From an uncultured Flavobacteriales bacterium (GTDB lineage Bacteria > Pseudomonadota > Alphaproteobacteria > UBA8366 > JADFVY01): a stretch of DNA of 64,000 nucleotides. Made by a program: the position numbers and the translations under genes. The stretch lies in assembly GCA_964347475.1 (NCBI GenBank), contig CAYFYY010000001.1, positions 6,879 through 70,878 on the forward strand, written 5' to 3'. Within the stretch, counting starts at the first letter, position 1, and every line of letters starts with the position of its first letter. The notes below the pieces were generated by a model. It was given only the letters and a program-made list of their open reading frames with translations, made no database searches and had not been told where the DNA came from. Positions 51,636 through 63,530 of the stretch are shown piece after piece.

Positions 51636-52331
51636 TCAGGCGGCGCGCGTTGCCCCCGGTGCGGCGTCGAGGTCGCCGGAAGCCGTCGCCCCGATGATTT
51701 CCCAGCTCCGTGCCCGCGCCGCGCGGGCAAGCCGCCGATCGGGGCGGACGGCGATCGGCCGCGCCACCCGTGCCAGCAGCGCAAGGTCATGAATCGAGTC
51801 GGCATAAGCGGCGGCCCGCGCAAGCTCGGCGCCGTGCCGCGCGCACAGATCGTCGGCCGCGGCGATCTTGTCGATCCCCAGCGGATGACGGACCGGCGGG
51901 GCCGCCGCGAACCGGCCATCCCGTAGCGCATAGCGCGCGCCCTGCCAGCCGTCGGCGCCGATCCGCTCCGCCAGCGGCCTGGCGAGGAAATCCGGGGTTC
52001 CGGTCAGCAGCAGGATCACATCGCCGGCACGGCGGTGCTCCTCGATGCGCTGCAGGACGGCCCGGTCGATCAGGCGGGCAAGATCGCGCTCCGCGAACGC
52101 GCGTGCAAGGGCGGCCACATCGTCGAGCGCGAGGCCGGCCAGATAGGCCTTGTTCTTGCGCAGCACGTGACGCCGGTAACGCCATCCGTTCGCCAGCATG
52201 AACCAGCCGGCCGCGGCAATCTGCGGCACGCCGATCACGCGGCGCCGCAGGAGATCCCGGACGAACAGGGATTCACTGCTGTGCGGTCCGGTCAGCAGTG
52301 TTCCATCGACGTCGAAAATCGCTGCGTTCAC
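51636..52331 (-). CDS. HAD-IB family phosphatase (SerB-like subfamily)
   Basis: Motif I AIFDVDGTLL, LLTGTPDF, and YADSIHDLALL. The GTG start overlaps the upstream stop (GTGA). Confidence 0.75.
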   Translation of the reverse strand: MNAAIFDVDGTLLTGPHSSESLFVRDLLRRRVIGVPQIAAAGWFMLANGWRYRRHVLRKNKAYLAGLALDDVAALARAFAERDLARLIDRAVLQRIEEHRRAGDVILLLTGTPDFLARPLAERIGADGWQGARYALRDGRFAAAPPVRHPLGIDKIAAADDLCARHGAELARAAAYADSIHDLALLARVARPIAVRPDRRLARAARARSWEIIGATASGDLDAAPGATRAA

Positions 52332-52978
52332 TCCACTGCCTCACGATAGGTCGAGCCGCGGGCCGGCTCCGCCACGGGACCCGGCCGCCTGGCGAGGAAC
52401 TCTATCACGACCGGCACGCCGCGGACGAGGCACATGACCACCGAGCACCACACGAGACCGCTGAGAATCGCCATGGCGGCGCCACCGAACTCGACCCAGA
52501 AGGACAGGTAGAGCGCGGGCAGCGGCTGCACCAGCAGGGCCAGGCCGAAGGTGGCCGTCTTGACCGTGTTGTAGAGGCCGCGCATGAAGCGTCCGCCGAC
52601 AAGAAAGCGGCCCAGGGGCGAGCGCATCATGTCGAACGGCGCGACGCCCTCGGACGCCGCCGCCGAATTGCGGATCGCATCGACGACGTTGCCCCGGACG
52701 ATGAACACGAGGGCGGCCCACACGGGCAGCAGGCCGATTTGGGCCAGCACGACCCACAGGACCGTTTCGACGACCCGGTCTGCGGCGATATCGAACGTCG
52801 CCCCGAATAGCGATGTCTCGCCGAACGCGCGCGCCGCATATCCGTCCAGCGCGTCCATCACCATGATGAGCGCGAGCAGCGGCAGGTTCCACAGCTGCCA
52901 GGCCGGCGGCGCCCAGTAGACCATGCCGACCAGGACGAACAGGAGGGTGAGACGGCCAAGCGTCACCAGATTTGCCAT
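52328..52978 (-). CDS. CDP-alcohol phosphatidyltransferase family protein (paralogue A)
   Basis: Complete signature DALDGYAARAFGETSLFGATFDIAADRV, i.e. D-x2-D-G-x2-A-R-x8-G-x3-D-x3-D. About six TM segments. Confidence 0.8.
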   Translation of the reverse strand: MANLVTLGRLTLLFVLVGMVYWAPPAWQLWNLPLLALIMVMDALDGYAARAFGETSLFGATFDIAADRVVETVLWVVLAQIGLLPVWAALVFIVRGNVVDAIRNSAAASEGVAPFDMMRSPLGRFLVGGRFMRGLYNTVKTATFGLALLVQPLPALYLSFWVEFGGAAMAILSGLVWCSVVMCLVRGVPVVIEFLARRPGPVAEPARGSTYREAVE

Positions 52979-53123: not shown

Positions 53124-53759
53124 CTACTCGGCGCTGCCGGGCGCGCGGCGCAGGCCCGCGAACGGGTCCTCGCGCTGGAAGAACTCCGCGAGCACGGGAA
53201 TGCCGCGCAGGAAATTGATCGCCACGGCGAGCCACACGAGGCCCGCCAGCACGGCTTCGAACAGCGCGCCCCGCGCGACCCAGAAGGCGGGGTCGATCGC
53301 CGGCAGCGGCTGCATCAGCACGGCCCAGCCGAAGGCGGCCACCTTGCTGCCGCACGACATGCCGCGCATGAACTTGCCGACGACGAGCGCCCGTCCCCAG
53401 CGCGAGCGCATCATCTCATACGGCGCCTGGCCCTCGCTTGCCCCGGTCTGGCGGATCGAATCGGTCAGGTGGCCGCGGACGATGAAATACACCGGCACCC
53501 ACACCGGCACCAGACCGAGATGGGCCAGCACGACCCACATCACGCTCTCCACGATGCGGTCGACGGCGATGTCGAACACCGCGCCGAACAGCGTGGATTC
53601 GTTGCGCCGCCGCGCCACGACGCCGTCGAGCCAGTCGAGCAGCACGACGGCCAGCAGCAGCGGCAGGTCGATAAGCTGCCAGGCCGGGGGCGCGAAATAC
53701 ATCATCACAACGAGGACGAACAGGAGCAGCAGGCGGGCCAGGGTGATCGCGTTCGCCAT
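53124..53759 (-). CDS. CDP-alcohol phosphatidyltransferase family protein (paralogue B)
   Basis: Signature DWLDGVVARRRNESTLFGAVFDIAVDRI. The start MANAITLARL aligns with the paralogue A start MANLVTLGRL and has a GGAGAGAG RBS. The track ORF start at 53774 is a TTG. Confidence 0.8.
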   Translation of the reverse strand: MANAITLARLLLLFVLVVMMYFAPPAWQLIDLPLLLAVVLLDWLDGVVARRRNESTLFGAVFDIAVDRIVESVMWVVLAHLGLVPVWVPVYFIVRGHLTDSIRQTGASEGQAPYEMMRSRWGRALVVGKFMRGMSCGSKVAAFGWAVLMQPLPAIDPAFWVARGALFEAVLAGLVWLAVAINFLRGIPVLAEFFQREDPFAGLRRAPGSAE

Positions 53760-53854
53760 ATCGACTCTCTCCAAACGTTCGGGAACCGCGCAGACCAGGA
53801 CGGACTGCGCCGCAAGATGAACACGGCGGCCAGCACGACTCGGCAGACCGGCTC

Positions 53855-54129: not shown

Positions 54130-56019
54130 ATGAAAAGGCTTGTCGTCGCGCTCTTTCTGGTGATCGTCCTGACCGACCCGGCCCGGCCCGGCATCGATGA
54201 GGCGCAGGACGCATACGACCGGGGCGACTTCGCAGCGGCATACGCTGAAGTTCGACCCCTCGCCGAGAACGGCAACCCCGAGGCCCAGGTCTTGCTCGGC
54301 GCCCTGTACGAGTATGGCCACGGTGTACGCGGCGCCCCTTCAGAGGCTGTACGTTGGTACCGGTTGGCCGCGGAGCAGGGCCATGCCCGGGGCCAGGCCT
54401 ATCTAGGCGCCATGTTTCTGACGGGGACGGGCGTGGCACAGGACGAGGCCACCGCGCTGTCCTGGTTCCGTCTGTCGGCCGAGCAGGGAGACGCGCGCGG
54501 ACAGACCAGTCTCGGCTACATGTACGAGACCGGGAGGGGCGTGGCCGCGGACGTCACCGAGGCGGCACGATGGTACGGAATGGCCGCCGAGCAGGGGTAT
54601 GCCGTCGCGCAGTACAATCTGGCCTTGATGTTCGAAAATGGCCGGGGCGTCGAGCAGGACGACGAGGAAGCGGCACGCTGGTACTTGATGGCGGCGCGAC
54701 AGGGCGATGCCGACGCCCAGACGAACCTCGGCTGGATGTACGAGAACGGCCGGGGTGTCGAGCAGGACGACGAGGAAGCGGCACACTGGTACTTGATGGC
54801 GGCGCGACAGGGCGATGCCGACGCGCAGACGAACCTCGGCTGGATGTACGAGAACGGCCGAGGCGTCGAACAGAATGACACAGAGGCTGTACGCTGGTAT
54901 CGCCTTGCTGCGGACCAGGGGTACGCGCGTGCGCAGACCAATCTTGGCTGGGTGTATGAGAACGGCCGGGGCGTCGCGCAGAATGATACAGAAGCCGTGC
55001 GCTGGTACCAAATCGCGGCGGAGCAGGACTATGACCGCGCCCAGAACGTCATGGGCCTGATGCATCAGTGGGGCCGTGGCGTGCCGCAGGATTACGCCGA
55101 AGCGGTGCGCTGGTACCGGAAGGCGGCCGAACAGGACTATCCCACCGCACAGTACAATCTGGCTTTGATGTATGAAAAGGGTCGAGGTGTTGACCAGGAC
55201 AGCGCGGCGGCCGTGCGCTGGTATCGCCGCGCCGCCGAGCAGGGGAACGCGGACGCCCAGACCAACCTTGGCTGGATGTACGGCAATGGCCGGGGAGTCG
55301 CCGAGGACGACGCGGAAGCCGTGCGCTGGTACGGCCTCGCAGCCGAGCAGGCGCATGCCGTCGCGCAGTACAATCTTGGCATCATGTACCGCTACGGCCA
55401 AGGGGTCGCCCGGAATTACCGACAGGCTCTCCAGTGGTTCAGGCTTGCTGCCGAGCAGGGCGACATCGATGCGCAATACAATATGGGCGAAATGTACGAG
55501 TCCGGGTTGGGCGTCGAGCGAGATCGGGCCGAAGCTGCGCGGTGGTACCGCCTGGCAGCCAACCAGGGCGATGGCGATGCGCAGGCCAAGCTCGGCTGGT
55601 TCTATCTCGAGGGAGCCGGAGTCGACCAGGACTACCGGGAAGCCCTCAGCTGGTTCCGACTTGCCGCCGAACAGGGAAGCGCGTCGGCCCAGTACAATCT
55701 CGGGCTCATGTACGAGACCGGCAAGGGAGTGGCAAGGAACGGCGCGAGCGCGACAGCCTGGTACCGTCGGTCGGCGGGGAACGGCGACGTCGACGCGCTG
55801 TTCCGGCTCGGCGTGATCTACGACGAGGGCCAGGGAATCGATGCGGACCGAACGGAAGCCTATAAGTGGTTTGTGCTGGCCAAGCGCCGCGGCAATCCGT
55901 CGGCGTCGCCTCGGCTTCTGTTGCTGTGGTTCGCCATGAATGCGGACGAAATCGCCGCAGCCGAAGCGCTGGCGGACGAATGGCAGGGCCTGCATCCGGT
56001 GCCCAACCGGGCGGACTGA
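54130..56019 (+). CDS. Secreted Sel1-repeat (SLR/TPR-like) protein, about 15-16 repeats
   Basis: Signal MKRLVVALFLVIVLTDPARP. Iterated A.(R/S)W(Y/F)..AAEQG.A.AQ.NLG.MYE.G.GV.QD units. GGAGA RBS. Confidence 0.85.
   Translation: MKRLVVALFLVIVLTDPARPGIDEAQDAYDRGDFAAAYAEVRPLAENGNPEAQVLLGALYEYGHGVRGAPSEAVRWYRLAAEQGHARGQAYLGAMFLTGTGVAQDEATALSWFRLSAEQGDARGQTSLGYMYETGRGVAADVTEAARWYGMAAEQGYAVAQYNLALMFENGRGVEQDDEEAARWYLMAARQGDADAQTNLGWMYENGRGVEQDDEEAAHWYLMAARQGDADAQTNLGWMYENGRGVEQNDTEAVRWYRLAADQGYARAQTNLGWVYENGRGVAQNDTEAVRWYQIAAEQDYDRAQNVMGLMHQWGRGVPQDYAEAVRWYRKAAEQDYPTAQYNLALMYEKGRGVDQDSAAAVRWYRRAAEQGNADAQTNLGWMYGNGRGVAEDDAEAVRWYGLAAEQAHAVAQYNLGIMYRYGQGVARNYRQALQWFRLAAEQGDIDAQYNMGEMYESGLGVERDRAEAARWYRLAANQGDGDAQAKLGWFYLEGAGVDQDYREALSWFRLAAEQGSASAQYNLGLMYETGKGVARNGASATAWYRRSAGNGDVDALFRLGVIYDEGQGIDADRTEAYKWFVLAKRRGNPSASPRLLLLWFAMNADEIAAAEALADEWQGLHPVPNRAD
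54649..54864 (+). repeat. Near-identical tandem duplication, 2 x 108 nt (one Sel1 unit each), inside 54130-56019
   Basis: Units 54649-54756 and 54757-54864 differ at 4 of 108 positions by my direct comparison. This gives one amino-acid change, R to H. Confidence 0.9.
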
Positions 56020-56184: not shown

Positions 56185-57306
56185 ATGCATCACGCACAGA
56201 TACGCAAGGCAAGACTGGCCGACATATCGGCGCTCGTGACCCTAGAGAACCGGTCATTCGAGCATGACCGGCTGTCGCGGCGCAGCTTCCGTTACCTGCT
56301 GACCCGCGGCCACGCGGAGACCGTCGTCGCGGCCAGCGCCGGCAAGGTGATTCTCGGCTATGCGATGGTGCTGTTCAACCGCGGCACGTCGCTGGCCCGG
56401 CTGTATTCCATCGCGGTCGACCCGAATCACCGGGGCCACGGGCTGGGCACCCGACTGCTGCACGCCGCAGAGGAAGCGGCGCGTGACCATGGCGCTGCCT
56501 ATATGCGCCTCGAGGTGCGCGAGGACGATCCGGCGACGCGCCGCCTCTACGAGAAGGAGGGATATCGCAAGTTTGCGGTCGAGCACCATTATTATGAGGA
56601 CGATGTCGACGCGATCCGCATGGAACGGTCGCTCGCACCGGCGCGCGACCCGAGCCTCGCGCGGGTGCCGTATTACAGCCAGAATCTGGATTTCACCTGC
56701 GGGCCGGCAGCGATCTTGATGGCCATGCATGCGCTGGATACGGACATCCCCGTCGACCAGACGGCCGAACTTCGCCTGTGGCGTGAGTCGACGACGATCT
56801 ACATGACGTCGGGCCACGGCGGCTGCAGCCCGCTGGGGCTCGCCGTCGCGGTCTCGCGCCGCGGATTTCCGGTGGCGGTCTGGCTCAGCCAGCAGTCACC
56901 GCTCTTCGTCGACTCGGTGCGTAGCGAGAAAAAGAAGGAAGTCATACGCCTTGTCGAAGAGGATTTCCGCAGGGAAGCGCGGGAACGAGGAATTCCGATC
57001 AGCTACCGGCCGTTATCGGTCAAGGCCATGCGGGAGAAATTCGATGCCGGCGGCATTCCGATCGTGCTGGTCAGCTCCTGGCGCTTCGATCGCGAGCGGA
57101 CACCGCACTGGGTCGTTGTCACCGGCTTCGACGATGAATATGTCTATCTCCACGATCCCTATATCGACCCCGATCAGGACAAGTCGGCCACCGATTGCAT
57201 GCAGATACCGGTCCCCCTCAGCGACTTCCGGCGAATGGCGCGCTACGGCCGCGCACAGCAGAAGGCGGCGCTGGTGATCAGCCCGCGCGCGGACGACGCC
57301 CGCTGA
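56185..57306 (+). CDS. Fusion protein: GNAT N-acetyltransferase plus a papain-fold C39-like peptidase domain
   Basis: GNAT core RGHGLGTRLLHAAEEAARDHGAAYMRLEV..LYEKEGY. C-terminal VPYYSQNLDFTCGPAAILMAMHAL (Cys) and HWVVVTGFDDEYVYLHDP (His). The start is uncertain; the ATG at 56047 is the alternative. Confidence 0.75.
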   Translation: MHHAQIRKARLADISALVTLENRSFEHDRLSRRSFRYLLTRGHAETVVAASAGKVILGYAMVLFNRGTSLARLYSIAVDPNHRGHGLGTRLLHAAEEAARDHGAAYMRLEVREDDPATRRLYEKEGYRKFAVEHHYYEDDVDAIRMERSLAPARDPSLARVPYYSQNLDFTCGPAAILMAMHALDTDIPVDQTAELRLWRESTTIYMTSGHGGCSPLGLAVAVSRRGFPVAVWLSQQSPLFVDSVRSEKKKEVIRLVEEDFRREARERGIPISYRPLSVKAMREKFDAGGIPIVLVSSWRFDRERTPHWVVVTGFDDEYVYLHDPYIDPDQDKSATDCMQIPVPLSDFRRMARYGRAQQKAALVISPRADDAR

Positions 57307-58832
57307 TGCCGCTGCATCTGATTATCGTGGACAAGCCCGAGGACTTCCCCTGGGACATGCCAGGCTGTCGCGTCGTCGTCGCCCGCGACTTCATCCGCGA
57401 GCCGGCGCCGCCCAAGTCGACCTCCATGCGGGTGGTCAATCTGTGCCGCGACCACAGCTATTTGAGCCTCGGCTACTACTGTTCCCTGCTGGCGGAAGGG
57501 CGCGGCCATCGCACGATCCCGTCGATCGAAGTCATGCTGGACCTGCACTGGAAGCGGTTGCTGCGCATCGCCCTGCCGGAGGTCAACGAGCTCGTCGAGA
57601 AGACCTTCCAGGCGCCGCCCGAATCGAGCCCGGTGATCGCGCATGTTTACTTCCGTCAGCCGGACGACTCCCGCCTCGCGGATGCGGCCGGACGTATTTT
57701 CGACCTGTTTCGCTGTCCGATCCTCAAAGTGACCCTCGGCCACCGCGCCGGCCAGTGGGAAATAACCGACCTCGCCCCCGGCGCCATCCGCGATCTCGAC
57801 GAAGCCCAGCGGCAGACGTTCCGGCAGGCGCTGGAACGGTATCTCCAGGTCGCGTGGCGGCAACAGCGGACGACGACGCCGGCGCGATATTCGATCGCCA
57901 TCCTGCACGATCCGGCCGAGAAACTGCCGCCGTCGAATGCGCGTTCGCTGGAGAAATTCGTGAAAGCCGGCGCGCAGCTCGGCGTCGAGGTCGAGCTGAT
58001 CACAAAGGCGGACTACGGACGGCTGCTCGAGTTCGACGCCCTGTTCATCCGCGAGACCACGGCGCTCGACCACCACACCTACCGTTTCGCCAAGAAAGCG
58101 GATACGGAGGATCTCGTGGTGATCGACGACCCGCGTTCGATCCTGCGCTGCACCAACAAGATCTACCTGGCGGAGCTGCTTCAGACCAACGGCGTGCCGA
58201 CGCCGAAGACCCTTGTCATCGACCGCCGCGGCATCGAGCGCGTCGAGGTGGAGCTCGGCTTTCCCGCGGTGATCAAGATCCCCGACGGGTCGTTCTCGCG
58301 CGGCATGCACCGGGTGGCCGACGCGGCGGAGCTCAAGGCCATCACCGCGACGGTATTCGACGAGTCCGACCTCATCATCGCCCAGGAATACATGCGCACG
58401 GAATTCGACTGGCGCGTCGGTGTTCTGGACGGCAAGCCGATCTATGTCTGCCAGTACGAAATGGCCCGGGGCCACTGGCAGATCGTCAAGCACGACGGCG
58501 ACGGCCAGATGCTCGAGGGGGAGTCGCGCACGCTCGCGGTCGCCGACGCGCCGCCGGCGGTGGTCGACACCGCGCTCCGTGCGGCCGCGCTCATCGGCGA
58601 CGGGCTATACGGTGTCGATCTGAAGGAGACTCCGGCCGGCATCTTCGTGGTCGAGGTCAACGACAATCCCAGCATCGACGCCGGCGTCGAGGACCTCGTG
58701 CTGAAGGACTCGTTGTACCAGACCATCATCAACGCCTTCATCGAGCGGCTCGACCGCCGCTCGCAGTCGCAGCCGCGCCGCAACAACGGCGCCAAGGGCA
58801 CCGGCCAGGAAGCAGGCCGGAACCCGAAGTAA
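57306..58832 (+). CDS. RimK-family ATP-grasp ligase with a long N-terminal extension domain
   Basis: ATP-grasp blocks LGFPAVIKIPDGSFSRGM, IIAQEYMRTEFDWRV, and VVEVNDNPSIDAGVED. It is preceded by about 220 aa of non-grasp sequence. The start overlaps the upstream stop (TGATG). Confidence 0.8.
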   Translation: MPLHLIIVDKPEDFPWDMPGCRVVVARDFIREPAPPKSTSMRVVNLCRDHSYLSLGYYCSLLAEGRGHRTIPSIEVMLDLHWKRLLRIALPEVNELVEKTFQAPPESSPVIAHVYFRQPDDSRLADAAGRIFDLFRCPILKVTLGHRAGQWEITDLAPGAIRDLDEAQRQTFRQALERYLQVAWRQQRTTTPARYSIAILHDPAEKLPPSNARSLEKFVKAGAQLGVEVELITKADYGRLLEFDALFIRETTALDHHTYRFAKKADTEDLVVIDDPRSILRCTNKIYLAELLQTNGVPTPKTLVIDRRGIERVEVELGFPAVIKIPDGSFSRGMHRVADAAELKAITATVFDESDLIIAQEYMRTEFDWRVGVLDGKPIYVCQYEMARGHWQIVKHDGDGQMLEGESRTLAVADAPPAVVDTALRAAALIGDGLYGVDLKETPAGIFVVEVNDNPSIDAGVEDLVLKDSLYQTIINAFIERLDRRSQSQPRRNNGAKGTGQEAGRNPK

Positions 58833-58892
58833 CATGGCCGCCCGCCATCGGGAGCCGCGATCGCGGCGCATGGCGGTGGGGCACTCGTCCCG

Positions 58893-59783
58893 ATGACCCG
58901 CCGGATCGTCGCGCTCCTCCTGCTGGTCGGCGTTGCCCACGGGTCGGCGCTGGCCGGGGATGGCGATTTCACGCATGGCCTGTTGTGGCGCATCGAGTCG
59001 GCGGGGACGGCGCCGAGCTATCTGTTCGGGACCATGCACTCGGCCGACCCGGCGGTCGCAACGCCGCCCGATGCGCTGCGACGGGTTCTGGACGACGTCG
59101 ACAGCCTGACCATCGAGGTGGTGCTGGATGACGCCGCGAACACGGCGTTGGCGCACGCGACGCTGCTGCCGGAGGAACGGCGCCTCGGCGACATCGTCGG
59201 GCCCGAGCGGCTGCGCCGGGTGGTGGAGACCGGCGCGCGATACGGCATCCCGGCGGAGCAGATCGAAAGGTTCCGGCCCTGGGCGCTGCAGCTGATGTTC
59301 AGCCTGCCGCCGGCCGAGATCGAGCGCCAGGCGAAGGGCGGGCTGTTCCTCGACAAGGTGTTGCAGCTGCGGGCCGAGGAGCGCGGCATCCCGGTGCACG
59401 GCCTCGAGACGGTCGAGGAGCAGATCGCCGCACTGGCCGGCACATCGGACGAGGAACAAGTCATTCTGCTCGATGCGGTGTTGACGCTGAACAACGAAAT
59501 CGACGCCATCTTCGAGACGCTGAAGCAGCTCTACCTAACGGGCGATCTTGCCGGCCTGCACCGCATGATGCTGGAGACCACCGGCGGCGCGCCGCGCGAG
59601 CTGATCGATGCCTATACCGATCGGCTTGTGCGCGAGCGCAATCGGCGCATGGTCGATCGCCTTGCAGCGCGCCTCGCCGAGGGCAACGCGCTTATCGCCG
59701 TCGGCGCCCTCCACCTGTATGGCGACGACGGCGTGCTGGGATTGCTGGCGCGGCGCGGCTACACGGTGACGCGGGTGGAGTGA
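58893..59783 (+). CDS. TraB/GumN family protein (secreted)
   Basis: Signal MTRRIVALLLLVGVAHGSALA. Family motif LLWRIESAGTAPSYLFGTMHSADP, and VGALHLYG near the C-terminus. Confidence 0.75.
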   Translation: MTRRIVALLLLVGVAHGSALAGDGDFTHGLLWRIESAGTAPSYLFGTMHSADPAVATPPDALRRVLDDVDSLTIEVVLDDAANTALAHATLLPEERRLGDIVGPERLRRVVETGARYGIPAEQIERFRPWALQLMFSLPPAEIERQAKGGLFLDKVLQLRAEERGIPVHGLETVEEQIAALAGTSDEEQVILLDAVLTLNNEIDAIFETLKQLYLTGDLAGLHRMMLETTGGAPRELIDAYTDRLVRERNRRMVDRLAARLAEGNALIAVGALHLYGDDGVLGLLARRGYTVTRVE

Positions 59784-60114: not shown

Positions 60115-60843
60115 ATGAGCACGGAAGAGAAATTCCACCGCGAGGGTGAGTTGGATGAGCTGCAGAGTCTCGCGCAACGCGGCGACGCCGAAGCCCAGTT
60201 CGATCTCGCCGTGCTCTATATGTGGGGACGTGGCGTAGCACCCGATTTGCCGAAAGCCGCGCAACTGTTCGAACTGGCCGCAATAAAAGGTCACGAATAT
60301 GCACAGTGCAACCTTGCCTCCCTCTACGTTGAGGGAATGGGAGTTGCGCAGGATTACGCGAAGGCCATGTTCTGGTTTCGGCAGGCGGCGGAGCAGGGTA
60401 ACGCGCGGGCGCAGTGCACGGTCGGTCACTTTCATTATCTCGGGATCGGCGCGCCGCAGGATTACGCTGAAGCGCTCCGGTGGTTCCGACTTGCCGCAAG
60501 CCAGCATGACCCTCGTGGCCAGCATTTCGTCGGCGTCATGCACGATAAAGGCGAAGGGACCGCCAAGGACGTTGCCGAAGCTCTGCGGTGGTATCGAATG
60601 GCTGCCGAGCAGGATTTGCCACTGGGACAATTGGCGTTGGCATGGAAATATTACAAAGGTGACGGCGTCGAGCAGGATCTGCCCCGCGCCTACGCCTGGT
60701 CTTCGTTGGCCGCCGACGCGACAGAGGTCGAGCTGGCGGGTCGTCTGTACAATGAGATTGGCAGCTTCATGACGCCCGCCCAGATAGCTGACGGCTCGCG
60801 TTTGGCGCAAGAATTGCGAAGCAGAATTCGGGCGCGACATTAG
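60115..60843 (+). CDS. Sel1-repeat protein (about 6 repeats, no obvious signal peptide)
   Basis: GDAEAQFDLAVLYMWGRGV.., A.FWFRQAAEQGNARAQ.., and similar units. The track ORF was trimmed to the ATG at 60115. Confidence 0.8.
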   Translation: MSTEEKFHREGELDELQSLAQRGDAEAQFDLAVLYMWGRGVAPDLPKAAQLFELAAIKGHEYAQCNLASLYVEGMGVAQDYAKAMFWFRQAAEQGNARAQCTVGHFHYLGIGAPQDYAEALRWFRLAASQHDPRGQHFVGVMHDKGEGTAKDVAEALRWYRMAAEQDLPLGQLALAWKYYKGDGVEQDLPRAYAWSSLAADATEVELAGRLYNEIGSFMTPAQIADGSRLAQELRSRIRARH

Positions 60844-60853
60844 GGATTGGACG

Positions 60854-61417
60854 CTATGTCCTCTCCGCCCCGAACGGCGGGCGCGCGAAGATCCGCCGCA
60901 GCATCGGCTCGAAGTGCTCCAGCGGCAGGGTGTCGTAGTCCGGGTCGAACGACGCCTGGTCCCATCGGTGGCAGAAATCGACCGCGGCCTGGTAGTGCGG
61001 GTGATCCCTGAAACGGTCGCGGGCGTTGCGGTCGCCACCCACGTGATGGGCGTAGTACCAGGCCTGGAAGATCCCATGATGCTTGACCACCCAGTACGTA
61101 CGCTCGGACACGTACGGCTTGAGGATCGCCGCCGCGAAGGCACTGTGATTGTATGGCGCCAACGCATCGCCGATGTCGTGCAGCAGCGCGGCCACCACCA
61201 TCTCTTCCTCCGCGGCGTCGCGCAGCGCCCGGGTCGCGGTCTGCAGGCCATGCTCCTGGCGGGTCACCGCGTAGCCTCCGAACGTCTGGTCGAGGCCATG
61301 GAAATAGGCGAGTACGCGGTCCGCGAGCCCCGCCGCATAGGCGGCCTCGAGACCGTGGAGGAATTCGTACTCGTCCCGCGTGCCGTCCTCCATGCGGGTG
61401 AACCGGACGACGTCCAT
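60854..61417 (-). CDS. HD-domain metal-dependent protein (phosphohydrolase or HD-type oxygenase; not distinguishable by eye)
   Basis: EHGLQTA..ALLHDIGD..NHS..KHHG pattern of His/Asp residues. The track ORF was trimmed by 177 codons to MDVVRF. Confidence 0.65.
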   Translation of the reverse strand: MDVVRFTRMEDGTRDEYEFLHGLEAAYAAGLADRVLAYFHGLDQTFGGYAVTRQEHGLQTATRALRDAAEEEMVVAALLHDIGDALAPYNHSAFAAAILKPYVSERTYWVVKHHGIFQAWYYAHHVGGDRNARDRFRDHPHYQAAVDFCHRWDQASFDPDYDTLPLEHFEPMLRRIFARPPFGAERT

Positions 61418-61452
61418 GGCACTCTCCCTCCCGGCTGTACGCGTGCGCGAGA

Positions 61453-62232
61453 TCAGTCGCGGTAGTCGGGTTCCTCCTCGTCGAGGATGTCCTTCATCGC
61501 CTCGAAGTGGTCGGCGGCGGCTGCCAGCGGGAACGCTGTCCACTGCCGGCAGGTCATCTCCGCCACCTCGTCGGAGGCGACGTGCAGCGGCTGGCCGGTC
61601 GACAGCGCCAGCACCTGAAGCTTGCAGGCGCGCTCCAGATAGTAGGCCTCGTCGAACGCCTCGGCTGCGCTGTGGCCGATCACCGCAACGCCGTGATTGG
61701 CCATGAACAGTACGCTCTTGCCGTCCTCGATCGCCGCGCCGATGCGCTGCCCCTCGACCGCGTCCAGCGCCATGCCGTTGAAGTTCTCGTCGTAAGCGAT
61801 GCGGCCGAAAAACCGCATCGCGTTCTGGTCGATCATCTGCAGCCGGTAGTCCTTGAGACAGGCGAGCGTCGTGGCGTGGAACATGTGGGTGTGCAGGATG
61901 CAGCGCGCCGCCGGATGGGCGGCGTGGATCCGGCCGTGGATGTGCCACGCGGTCGGGTCAGCCTTGCCGGCGCCGTGGCCGATCACGTCGTCGGTGCCGT
62001 CGGCGTCGAGCAGCAGCAGCTCGCTGGCCCGGATGCGGCTGAAATGCCGGCCCTGCGGGTTCATCAGGAAGCGCCTTCCATCGCCCGATACCGCGAGGCT
62101 GAAATGGTTGGCGATGCCCTCGTGCCAGTCGAGGCGCGCGGCGATGCGGAACAGCGCGGCGAGGTCGATGCGGCCCTGGCGCTCCACTTCGTCCATCGGC
62201 GATCCGTCCGGCCTTACGGCGTGCAGCGGCAT
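61453..62232 (-). CDS. Class II aldolase/adducin family protein
   Basis: The HTHMFHATTLA and ANHGVAVIG metal and active-site blocks are typical of this family. Confidence 0.8.
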   Translation of the reverse strand: MPLHAVRPDGSPMDEVERQGRIDLAALFRIAARLDWHEGIANHFSLAVSGDGRRFLMNPQGRHFSRIRASELLLLDADGTDDVIGHGAGKADPTAWHIHGRIHAAHPAARCILHTHMFHATTLACLKDYRLQMIDQNAMRFFGRIAYDENFNGMALDAVEGQRIGAAIEDGKSVLFMANHGVAVIGHSAAEAFDEAYYLERACKLQVLALSTGQPLHVASDEVAEMTCRQWTAFPLAAAADHFEAMKDILDEEEPDYRD

Positions 62233-62438
62233 GTCCCGGCTCTCCCGATTCGCGTTCCAGCCCAACTGGCGCGATCATGCGCACGGAATGCACGGCGAAT
62301 CAATACGCGGCCCAATGCCCCGACAAACAGGTCGCGCAGGTTGGCCGGCAGCGGGCCCCGATTTGTGATCGAAAACGCGCGGCAATATGCATGCAGTTGG
62401 GGTATCCTGTCGGCACACAGTGACGGGAGCGTTGCGAG

Positions 62439-63530
62439 ATGGGTTCGACGGCTGGTGGTGCCGGCGCACCGGCGATTTCCAAAACCAACCCGGTGGGCAC
62501 CGACGGGTTCGAGTTCGTCGAATACACGGCGCCCGATACCGCAATGCTCGACGAGCTGTTCCGGTCGATGGGCTTCGTCCGGGCGGCGCGCCATCGCTCG
62601 AAGGACGTCACGTTGTACCGCCAGGGCGAGGTCAACTTCATCGTCAATGCAGAGCCGGGCAGCTTCGGTGCCGAGTTCGCGAAGGCCCATGGGCCGTCCG
62701 CCTGCGCCATGGCGTTTCGCGTCGCCGACGCGGCGCTGGCGCTGCGGCGCGCCGCGGCGCTGGGGGCGAAGCCGGTGGAAGGGCAGATCGGCCCGATGGA
62801 GGTGAACATCCCGGCCATCGCGGGCATCGGCGGCAGCCTTCTGTATTTCGTCGACCGCTACGGGGCGCAGGGGACCATCTACGACATCGACTTCGTGCCG
62901 CTGGAGAATGACGGCGGCGGCAGTGTGGGCCTGACATACGTCGATCACCTGACGCACAATGTCGAACGCGGCAACATGGACGAGTGGGCCGGGTTCTACG
63001 AGCGTCTGTTCGGCTTTCGGGAACTCAAGTATTTCGACATCGAGGGCAAGCTGACGGGCCTGAAGTCCCGCGCCATGGTCAGCCCTTGCGGCAAGATCCG
63101 CATCCCGATCAACGAATCCTCCGACGACAAGTCCCAGATCGAGGAGTATCTGCGCGCCTATCGCGGCGAGGGCATCCAGCACGTGGCGCTGGGCACCGAC
63201 GACATCGTCGCCACGGTCGACGCGCTGAAGGCGAGGGGAATCCCGTTCATGGCGCCGCCGCCGGATACGTATTACGAGGCGGTGGACACGCGGGTCCCCG
63301 GCCACGGCGAGCCGCTCGCGGAGCTGAAACGCAACGGCATCCTGATCGACGGTGCGCCGACCGAGGGCGGCGGGCGACTGCTGCAAATCTTCACCGAGAC
63401 GGTGATCGGCCCGATCTTCTTCGAGCTGATCCAGCGCAAGGGCGACGAGGGGTTCGGCGAGGGCAACTTCCGCGCCCTCTTCGAATCGATGGAGCAGGAC
63501 CAGATCCGGCGCGGTGTGCTGAAGGAGTAG
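62439..63530 (+). CDS. hppD: 4-hydroxyphenylpyruvate dioxygenase
   Basis: GFEFVEYT, GEGIQHVALGTDDI, and FFELIQRKGDEGFGEGNFRALFESMEQDQIRRGVL. Confidence 0.9.
   Translation: MGSTAGGAGAPAISKTNPVGTDGFEFVEYTAPDTAMLDELFRSMGFVRAARHRSKDVTLYRQGEVNFIVNAEPGSFGAEFAKAHGPSACAMAFRVADAALALRRAAALGAKPVEGQIGPMEVNIPAIAGIGGSLLYFVDRYGAQGTIYDIDFVPLENDGGGSVGLTYVDHLTHNVERGNMDEWAGFYERLFGFRELKYFDIEGKLTGLKSRAMVSPCGKIRIPINESSDDKSQIEEYLRAYRGEGIQHVALGTDDIVATVDALKARGIPFMAPPPDTYYEAVDTRVPGHGEPLAELKRNGILIDGAPTEGGGRLLQIFTETVIGPIFFELIQRKGDEGFGEGNFRALFESMEQDQIRRGVLKE

Follow-up and report, generated by a model that had tools for sequence, protein, structure and literature searches.

Here, we describe a conserved two-gene module in a 64,000-nucleotide stretch of contig CAYFYY010000001.1 (GenBank assembly GCA_964347475.1), the whole of which we refer to as "the window." The first gene encodes a GNAT N-acetyltransferase fused to a C39-like, papain-fold cysteine peptidase domain (DUF3335). 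The second gene, whose start codon overlaps the stop codon of the first, encodes an ATP-grasp amino-acid ligase with an additional N-terminal domain, RLAN. With slightly less than even confidence, and working from sequence, we propose that the module serves to assemble a short non-ribosomal peptide and to N-acetylate and trim it, i.e., that its product would be a small N-acetylated oligopeptide metabolite. A first-pass annotation of the same DNA had suggested an uncharacterized system for building and trimming peptides or protein tails. This remains the best class of explanation, with one amendment: it is the acetyltransferase, and not the peptidase, that consistently accompanies the ligase.

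The two genes are tightly linked across genomes. When each species was represented by one genome, a pattern scan identified at least 590 genomes with the GNAT-C39 fusion, and neighborhoods were counted for the best 80 GNAT-C39 loci. An RLAN-ligase gene lies directly downstream and on the same strand in 76 of these 80 loci, i.e., in 76 of the 78 that are assessable, which bears out the linkage of the fusion to a long RimK homolog in other genomes. The four exceptions are two contig ends and two loci, L022 (2114-6053) and L061 (5006-8833), that truly lack an RLAN-ligase; in both, the fusion is found with genes for an M14 carboxypeptidase and a DUF155 protein. Therefore, the peptidase fusion can exist without an adjacent ligase. 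The distance between the fusion and the ligase, measured for 73 loci, has a median of 0 nt, with 36 pairs overlapping and 70 separated by ≤50 nt. In the window, the junction reads cgcTGATGccg, with the TGA of gene 1 (57304-57306) and the ATG of gene 2 (57306-57308) sharing one base, as the first-pass annotation had recognized. Such close spacing across loci argues for translational coupling of the two genes. The range of the pair takes in Alpha-, Beta-, and Gammaproteobacteria as well as Verrucomicrobiota; the genes are adjacent in Verrucomicrobiota, in Burkholderiales, and on a chromid of Azospirillum brasilense Sp7. A Rhodospirillales metagenome-assembled genome, JBIOXH01, carries two copies of the pair on separate contigs (L006 and L008), reflecting either paralogy or a mixture of strains.

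The reciprocal view, from the ligase, separates the contributions of the two halves of the fusion. Among 80 metagenome loci seeded with the ligase, 70 were assessable and 10 were not, with a GNAT gene being counted if it lay within 4 kb. The GNAT-C39 fusion is upstream on the same strand in 30 loci, divergent in 12, and convergent in two; a GNAT gene lacking the peptidase is divergent in 14 loci, and directly upstream of or fused to the ligase in four; the remaining eight have no GNAT gene despite there being room to see one. A GNAT domain is thus present in 62 of the 70 assessable loci, as opposed to 44 of 70 for a peptidase fused to GNAT. Because of this difference, we regard the acetyltransferase as the constant partner of the ligase, and the peptidase as a frequent accessory. 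Fusion proteins make the same pairing in a single chain. An exhaustive search for the RLAN domain yielded 720 clusters at 50% identity, and four of the cluster representatives (638-663 amino acids) are single-chain GNAT-RLAN-ATP-grasp proteins. When one such fusion is compared with the proteins of the window, the GNAT domain is 50% identical and the ligase part 42% identical. In Cohaesibacter, the fused GNAT-RLAN-ligase gene stands alone, with no peptidase nearby. Lastly, one locus (L085 8001-10658) has a single 885-amino-acid open reading frame (ORF) that comprises GNAT, DUF3335, RLAN, and ATP-grasp domains, and is either a genuine fusion or the result of a frameshift at the usual 1-4 nt overlap.

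The acetyltransferase domain belongs to the GNAT family (PF00583, Acetyltransf_1; 71.3 bits, with a cutoff of 20.7). Its acetyl-CoA motif, R83-G-H-G86-L-G88, conforms to the R/Q-x-x-G-x-G/A consensus; conservation of both G86 and G88 is at least 90%, and Y136-Y137 is invariant. The domain falls just under the cutoff of TIGR01575, the equivalog model for RimI, which is the S18-alanine N-acetyltransferase (83.6 bits, cutoff 86.4). In a HMMER alignment to E. coli RimI (5isv), the invariant Glu110 is on the position of RimI Glu103, which we take to be the general base, and Tyr122, the equivalent of RimI Tyr115, is Tyr or Phe in the family. In an AlphaFold model of the gene 1 product (pLDDT 90), the top structural matches of the GNAT domain are Ard1, RimI, and Naa10 (TM about 0.85-0.9 on the target). 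Based on the RimI-model score, the alignment of Glu110, and these structural matches, the domain is predicted to be of the alpha-amine acetyltransferase type, RimI-like without being a RimI ortholog.

The peptidase domain matches the DUF3335 family (PF11814, "Peptidase_C39 like family") over profile positions 1-205 of 206 (296.3 bits, cutoff 25), and more than 4800 homologs share the GNAT-DUF3335 architecture. As in papain-fold enzymes, a Gln that contributes the oxyanion hole, a Cys, a His, and an Asp follow one another in order and are conserved across the family; these are Gln166 (56680-56682), Cys172 (56698-56700), His308 (57106-57108), and Asp324 (57154-57156). In alignments of 16 and 52 sequences, the first three show no variation, and Asp324 is retained in at least 90% of the sequences. 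The intact Cys and His reported in the first-pass annotation (FTCGPAA, Cys172; PHWVVVTG, His308) are therefore both invariant among homologs, and the conservation of catalytic residues, a lack of which that annotation would have taken as refuting its idea, holds for the tetrad, each residue being invariant or nearly so. A second invariant cysteine, Cys214, is located in a GGC loop. Compared with the PDB, the domain profile has weak matches to BtrH_N-domain proteins (E=0.003) and to the double-glycine protease PCAT (E=0.005). A more specific identity, that of a bacteriocin-processing C39 peptidase of the ABC-transporter type (PF03412), was not supported: PF03412 gave no match at E 0.01 or better, no ABC exporter recurs among the neighbors, and there is no conserved short ORF that might encode a substrate with a double-glycine leader.

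The C-terminal half of the ligase passes the threshold for the broad RimK ATP-grasp domain (PF08443; residues 284-458; 28 bits, cutoff 21). The ATP-grasp residues are Lys324 (58275), Gln360-Glu, and Asp368-x-Arg370, and the Mg ligands are Asp438 (58617), Glu450 (58653), and Asn452 (58659). K324, Q360, D368, R370, D438, E450, and N452 are invariant in a cross-phylum alignment of 22 sequences and conserved in 54 homologs; the region also has a family-specific motif, H390-W-Q392. Among characterized ligase families, LysX gives the best score (78.5 bits, equivalog cutoff 275.6). Scores for the RimK family (TIGR00768; 71 bits, cutoff 143.4) and the S6-glutamate ligase (NF007764; 16.9 bits, cutoff 331) are also below their cutoffs, such that the kinship with RimK implied by the first-pass annotation does not amount to orthology. 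Alignments were made to the LysX-type enzyme of T. thermophilus (3vpd, the best sequence match in the PDB) and to P. syringae RimK (7qys). The 3vpd loop H-W-I-T-N-T-A-R-G-G corresponds to H-W-Q-I-V-K in the window ligase, and the latter is conserved in the family. A paper on Klebsiella CfmP was set aside as it concerns a separate, TupA-like family of ATP-grasp proteins.

N-terminal to the ATP-grasp region is the RLAN domain (PF14401; residues 26-174; 141.5 bits, cutoff 25), of which Iyer et al. (2009, Mol Biosyst) is said to be the source. The first-pass annotation was correct in describing an extra N-terminal domain; its size is about 195 amino acids and not about 220. The domain has an invariant motif, N45-L-C-R48...Y52...G56-Y-Y58-x-S-L-L-A-E64-x-R66, and no sequence relatives of it were found in the PDB. 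The structure check that the annotation had called for gave a confident fold that resembles ATP-grasp. Specifically, with an AlphaFold model of RLAN (pLDDT 88, pTM 0.83) as the Foldseek query against the PDB, all of the top 50 matches are ATP-grasp-fold proteins, mostly ligases (ArgX, LysX, RimK, Ddl, and PsnB), at E=3e-4 to 6e-2 and a query TM of about 0.5. A profile-profile comparison of RLAN with the ATP-grasp half of its own protein gave a colinear match that is weak and not significant (P=0.046, probability 1%). Together, the Foldseek matches and the colinear, non-significant profile match suggest that RLAN might be a cut-down, probably inactive ATP-grasp duplicate, an idea we hold loosely; an internal duplication within the ligase is only suggested.

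We propose that the two genes at 56185-58832 form an operon that acts as the functional unit and specifies a cytoplasmic enzyme set with three activities. The RLAN/ATP-grasp ligase would convert a carboxylate to an acyl phosphate and then add one or more amino acids by RimK/LysX-type chemistry, the added residue probably being glutamate-like. The RimI-like GNAT would acetylate the free alpha-amino group of the same product, and the fused papain-fold cysteine peptidase would hydrolyze or trim that product, a task in which carboxypeptidase-type enzymes of the M14 or DUF2817 families may share in other genomes. No substrate gene adjoins the module, and a free amino acid or a short peptide is the favored acceptor. 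The product would be a small N-acetylated, probably acidic oligopeptide, with N-acetylaspartylglutamate or N-acetylglutaminylglutamine amide, and not ribosomal protein S6, as its analog. We infer the order of the reactions, which amino acid is used, what kind of acceptor receives it, and any formation of a protein complex.

A small-molecule product is favored for three reasons: (i) no substrate gene is linked to the module; (ii) the fused forms stand alone; (iii) variant loci carry enzymes of small-molecule metabolism. For the first of these, a search of 74 loci, covering 600 nt beyond each end, found no conserved short ORF (12-90 amino acids); the short-ORF clusters that did emerge are low-complexity sequence or alternative frames of neighboring genes. 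The first-pass annotation had seen no precursor-peptide ORF in the window and considered a role in making a ribosomally synthesized and post-translationally modified peptide (RiPP) to be unsupported, and the broader search leads to the same conclusion. Similarly, across 1.78 Mb of loci, no gene for S6 (rpsF) or S18 (rpsR) was detected in 167 loci, using hand-entered query sequences, and no LysW-like ORF (a zinc ribbon with an acidic W-G-E tail) or other acid-tailed ORF was found in 168 sequences. In addition, no ABC transporter recurs in the neighbor clusters.

Variant loci point to a small molecule. Three loci (L120 1530-5627, L149, and L158) have a GNAT-less operon consisting of a C39-only gene, the RLAN-ligase, and a carboxylate-amine ligase of the YbdK-type GCS2 family, in that order. 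Legionella adelaidensis (L170 41-3232) has the RLAN-ligase followed by GCS2 and an N-formylglutamate amidohydrolase. In L156, a gamma-glutamyltransferase (GGT) gene immediately precedes the ligase; in L116, such a gene lies a short way downstream in convergent orientation. On the Pseudomonas aeruginosa plasmid pZYPA1927 (L168 5902-7491), a 529-amino-acid RLAN-ligase homolog with 48% identity stands alone, surrounded by chromosomal-type genes that include ggt, a Glu/Asp ABC transporter, and pagP. Judging by the gene order and by one paper, in which PA1345 is labeled a "hypothetical ATP-binding protein" and is listed as having a CpxR box, this homolog is probably PA1345.

Other neighbors recur as well. 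A cytosolic M14A-like carboxypeptidase is encoded divergently upstream in 10 of the 80 genome loci. In 11 of the 80 metagenome loci, a DUF2817 protein with H-x-x-E and N-R-N motifs, which we read as M14-like, is in an operon with GNAT-C39. A DUF155 membrane protein is encoded downstream in nine genome loci and seven metagenome loci. In 27 loci from one gammaproteobacterial clade (L010, L014, L015, L020, L033-L037, and others), the module is divergent from a true argE gene (541-577 bits, cutoff 460), with argA further upstream. This adjacency is probably clade synteny, and was set aside as functional evidence; it may reflect a link to N-acetyl amino-acid metabolism.

Several points weigh against our proposal. 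The N-x-x-x-G-G substrate loop of LysX-type enzymes is replaced by H-W-Q-I-V-K, and the amino-acid specificity is unreadable from sequence. The closest relatives of the GNAT domain, RimI and Naa10, acetylate protein N-termini; C39-like peptidases usually cut peptides or proteins; and the nearest characterized ligases, RimK and LysX, modify proteins at the C-terminus. The additional domain, RLAN, could serve to dock a protein substrate. The genes for GCS2, GGT, and formylglutamate amidohydrolase are confined to a small number of variants that lack GNAT, and the function of these variants may be a different one. Lastly, no biochemical or genetic data on any member of the group were found in the searchable literature.

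The module could instead write, erase, and cap a protein tail, a possibility that we consider less likely than a small-molecule product. The ligase would add amino acids, e.g., glutamates, to the C-terminus of a specific protein encoded elsewhere, for which S6 and other housekeeping proteins are candidates. Trimming of this tail would fall to the peptidase and to the carboxypeptidases of the M14 type, and the GNAT would acetylate an N-terminus of the same target or complex. Such a system would parallel RimK/RimB of Pseudomonas and, more distantly, the set of ligases, peptidases, and acetyltransferases that modify tubulin. It fits with the protein C-termini on which RimK and LysX/ArgX work, with the similarity of the GNAT domain to the protein N-terminal acetyltransferases RimI, Ard1, and Naa10, with a protein-docking RLAN, and with the cytosolic M14 carboxypeptidases that recur nearby. 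The partnership of a protease with RimK has been experimentally established (PMC11957791), and a housekeeping target would also explain why no substrate gene is linked. However, none of 167 loci has an S6 or S18 gene, no carrier-like or acid-tailed ORF is nearby, the ligase scores far under the RimK family and S6-ligase cutoffs, and variant loci have enzymes typical of small-molecule metabolism. Moreover, P. aeruginosa is reported to have a separate canonical rimBK (PMC10092738) in addition to its RLAN-ligase, which argues against simple redundancy with S6 modification.

It is improbable, in our estimation, that the papain-fold domain is a transferase, in which case Cys172 would carry the ligase-built acyl or peptidyl group as a thioester before its transfer to an amine acceptor. 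BtrH (butirosin), phytochelatin synthase, and CtaG (closthioamide) function in this manner. BtrH_N-domain proteins are the best sequence relatives of the domain in the PDB, with E-values (0.003) that are weak, and in one review DUF3335 is placed in the same group as BtrH_N, C39, C70, and phytochelatin synthase (PMC10318531). The pairing of an ATP-grasp enzyme with a papain-like, amide-forming enzyme also seems to have a precedent (PMC7183216). However, no carrier protein or acceptor-pathway genes are linked to the module, and the domain is dispensable in many loci, a better fit to trimming or recycling than to a core assembly step.

The first-pass annotation had treated the pair as part of a larger set, with TraB/GumN following the ligase and Sel1-repeat proteins on both sides (Table 1). 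As one system, this five-gene block would export a product to be processed by the secreted TraB/GumN protein, with Sel1 proteins as adaptors, which we judge very unlikely. The five genes do share a strand and are separated by short gaps in the window, and TraB/GumN follows the ligase in two moderately diverged relatives (L002, a 71% relative, and L088, an 81% relative). Against this, Sel1 genes are present in 0 of 160 related loci and TraB/GumN in three of 160, the third (L064) having it 4 kb away on the opposite strand, and the other 157 having none. In addition, TraB/GumN has a signal peptide and neither the GNAT-C39 fusion nor the ligase has one. Because Sel1 and TraB/GumN are missing from nearly all loci, the conserved unit is two genes and not five, and we judge TraB/GumN to be outside the conserved module and at most a lineage-specific accessory.

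Microviridin-type clusters combine ATP-grasp, GNAT, and C39 proteins. An equivalent RiPP role here, an analogy raised by the first-pass annotation, with the ATP-grasp enzyme cross-linking a ribosomal precursor, the C39-like domain removing the leader, and the GNAT acetylating the new N-terminus, is the least credible of the alternatives: C39-ABC transporters are the commonest neighbors of graspetide ligases (PMC8939145) and the RLAN model weakly matches the graspetide ligase PsnB, but the 74 loci have no conserved short ORF within 600 nt, no ABC transporter recurs, the fused gene is alone in Cohaesibacter, and the module sits amid housekeeping genes.

Table 1. Features of the module and its flanking genes, with positions in the window
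Feature	Position	Strand	Basis
Sel1 protein, 15 repeats	54130-56019	+	Pfam
Gene 1: GNAT N-acetyltransferase + DUF3335 (C39-like, papain-fold) cysteine peptidase fusion, 373 aa	56185-57306	+	PF00583 E=1e-19, PF11814 E=1e-88
GNAT domain, aa 1-152, RimI/NAT-like	56185-56640	+	PF00583
DUF3335 papain-fold peptidase domain, aa 161-365	56665-57279	+	PF11814
Stop/start overlap TGATG, gene 1/gene 2	57304-57308	+	Direct reading
Gene 2: RLAN + RimK/LysX-type ATP-grasp amino-acid ligase (predicted), 508 aa	57306-58832	+	PF14401 E=2e-41, PF08443 E=2e-6
RLAN domain, aa 1-195	57306-57890	+	PF14401
ATP-grasp catalytic region, aa about 196-485	57891-58760	+	PF08443
TraB/PrgY/GumN, secreted	58893-59783	+	PF01963 E=4e-64; signal-peptide-like N-terminus MTRRIVALLLLVGVAHGSALA
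Sel1 protein, 5 repeats	60115-60843	+	Pfam

The five genes of the window between 54130 and 60843 have Pfam E-values of 1e-162 to 2e-6, and ORF and Pfam readings place them on the plus strand where the first-pass annotation had put them. The distance between the ligase and TraB/GumN, measured as 60 nt, is likewise as described there. Independent public gene calls for the same metagenome contig (GCA_012974985.1) give identical products of 373, 508, 296, and 242 amino acids, and one NCBI protein (P0121) is 100% identical to the window ligase. A scan of the window for promoters and terminators gave matches at chance level only, an Rfam search of the window gave no match, and the PADLOC anti-phage defense models gave no match to the three proteins at E 0.001 or better. 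The upstream Sel1 gene has a 108-nt tandem array of about seven copies with 73-79% identity (54511-55410), and two near-identical 36-amino-acid repeats (DADAQTNLGWMYENGRGVEQDDEEAA.WYLMAARQG) are indicative of a recent internal duplication. On the minus strand are tandem paralogous genes for CDP-alcohol phosphatidyltransferases of 216 amino acids each (52328-52978 and 53124-53774), and immediately downstream of the first of these, a HAD-IB hydrolase gene (51636-52331) that overlaps its 3' end by 4 nt. The block is followed by genes for an HD-domain PhnZ-like oxygenase, a class II aldolase, and a glyoxalase-fold dioxygenase (60854-63530). A longer public contig (L081 9044-11164) continues with a mercury-resistance set that comprises MerR, MerF, and a flavoprotein disulfide reductase, taken as MerA.

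Both of the unusual domains were already Pfam families, and the window locus is one more member. NCBI names the homologs [quoted passage not shown] and "RimK family protein," and a survey from 2023 makes mention of GNAT fused to DUF3335 (PMC10318531). No experimental study of the RLAN (PF14401) or DUF3335 (PF11814) families was found in the searchable literature. What is added here is a count of how often the genes are linked, the fusion proteins, the finding that the GNAT is the primary partner, the ATP-grasp-like fold of RLAN, the recurring carboxypeptidase neighbors, and the exclusion of TraB/GumN and Sel1. The analysis narrows the experimental target to two genes, with the acetyltransferase, and not the peptidase, as the obligatory partner. 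That three activities with intact catalytic residues have stayed together, through gene overlap and through fusion, points to a defined chemistry that awaits discovery; it could yield a small peptide metabolite or a protein modification of a new kind. Tractable organisms have the full pair (A. brasilense Sp7) or the ligase (P. aeruginosa). As a speculation that we consider doubtful, the module could be a self-contained writer, cap, and eraser, whether of a regulated tail on a specific bacterial protein, as a counterpart to that of tubulin, or of an undescribed N-acetylated oligopeptide (an osmolyte, a chelator, or a thiol-like compound), with RLAN as an inactivated ATP-grasp duplicate that holds the substrate or measures its length.

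The module can be compared with several known systems. Graspetide clusters also bring together an ATP-grasp ligase, a GNAT, and a C39-type peptidase; by contrast, the module described here has no precursor gene and no ABC transporter, and its ligase is of the RimK/LysX type with RLAN. The tails of tubulin are modified by TTL/TTLL ligases, by vasohibin and CCP peptidases, and by the acetyltransferase alpha-TAT. By analogy only, the same folds recur, i.e., an ATP-grasp ligase, a papain-like cysteine peptidase, an M14 carboxypeptidase, and a GNAT-fold acetyltransferase; there is no homology beyond the level of fold, and a bacterial target protein is hypothetical. The LysX/ArgX-LysW system includes the best-scoring ligase family and, like the module, ends with a hydrolase, LysK of family M20. 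However, the window ligase is far under the LysX cutoff, no locus has a gene for a LysW-like carrier, and no kinase, reductase, or aminotransferase genes are linked to the module.

A GNAT and a RimK-type ATP-grasp ligase together make an N-acetylated dipeptide both in bacteria, in the protein Ngg, which is the N-acetylglutaminylglutamine synthetase, and in mammals, where NAT8L and RIMKLA/RIMKLB yield N-acetylaspartylglutamate. The one-protein layout of Ngg is mirrored by the single-chain GNAT-RLAN-ligase variants, and the window GNAT weakly matches the Ngg model (E=2e-7). However, the TIGR03103 score is 29.8 bits against a cutoff of 569, with the match confined to the GNAT region; RLAN and the peptidase have no counterpart in Ngg; and no AsnO-type amidotransferase gene emerged in the neighbor surveys. 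RimK/RimB (RimABK) of Pseudomonas, and E. coli RimK, differ in that RimB is retropepsin-like and there is no GNAT, whereas the module has a papain-fold peptidase, a constant GNAT, a ligase extended by RLAN, and, in 167 loci, no link to rpsF. What they share is an ATP-grasp alpha-L-amino-acid ligase encoded beside a dedicated peptidase; the window ligase has the Pfam RimK ATP-grasp domain with its Mg and ATP residues conserved. RimB trims the product of RimK and also stimulates the synthesis of poly-glutamate (PMC11957791). RimK with its protease RimB is the closest arrangement that is understood experimentally.

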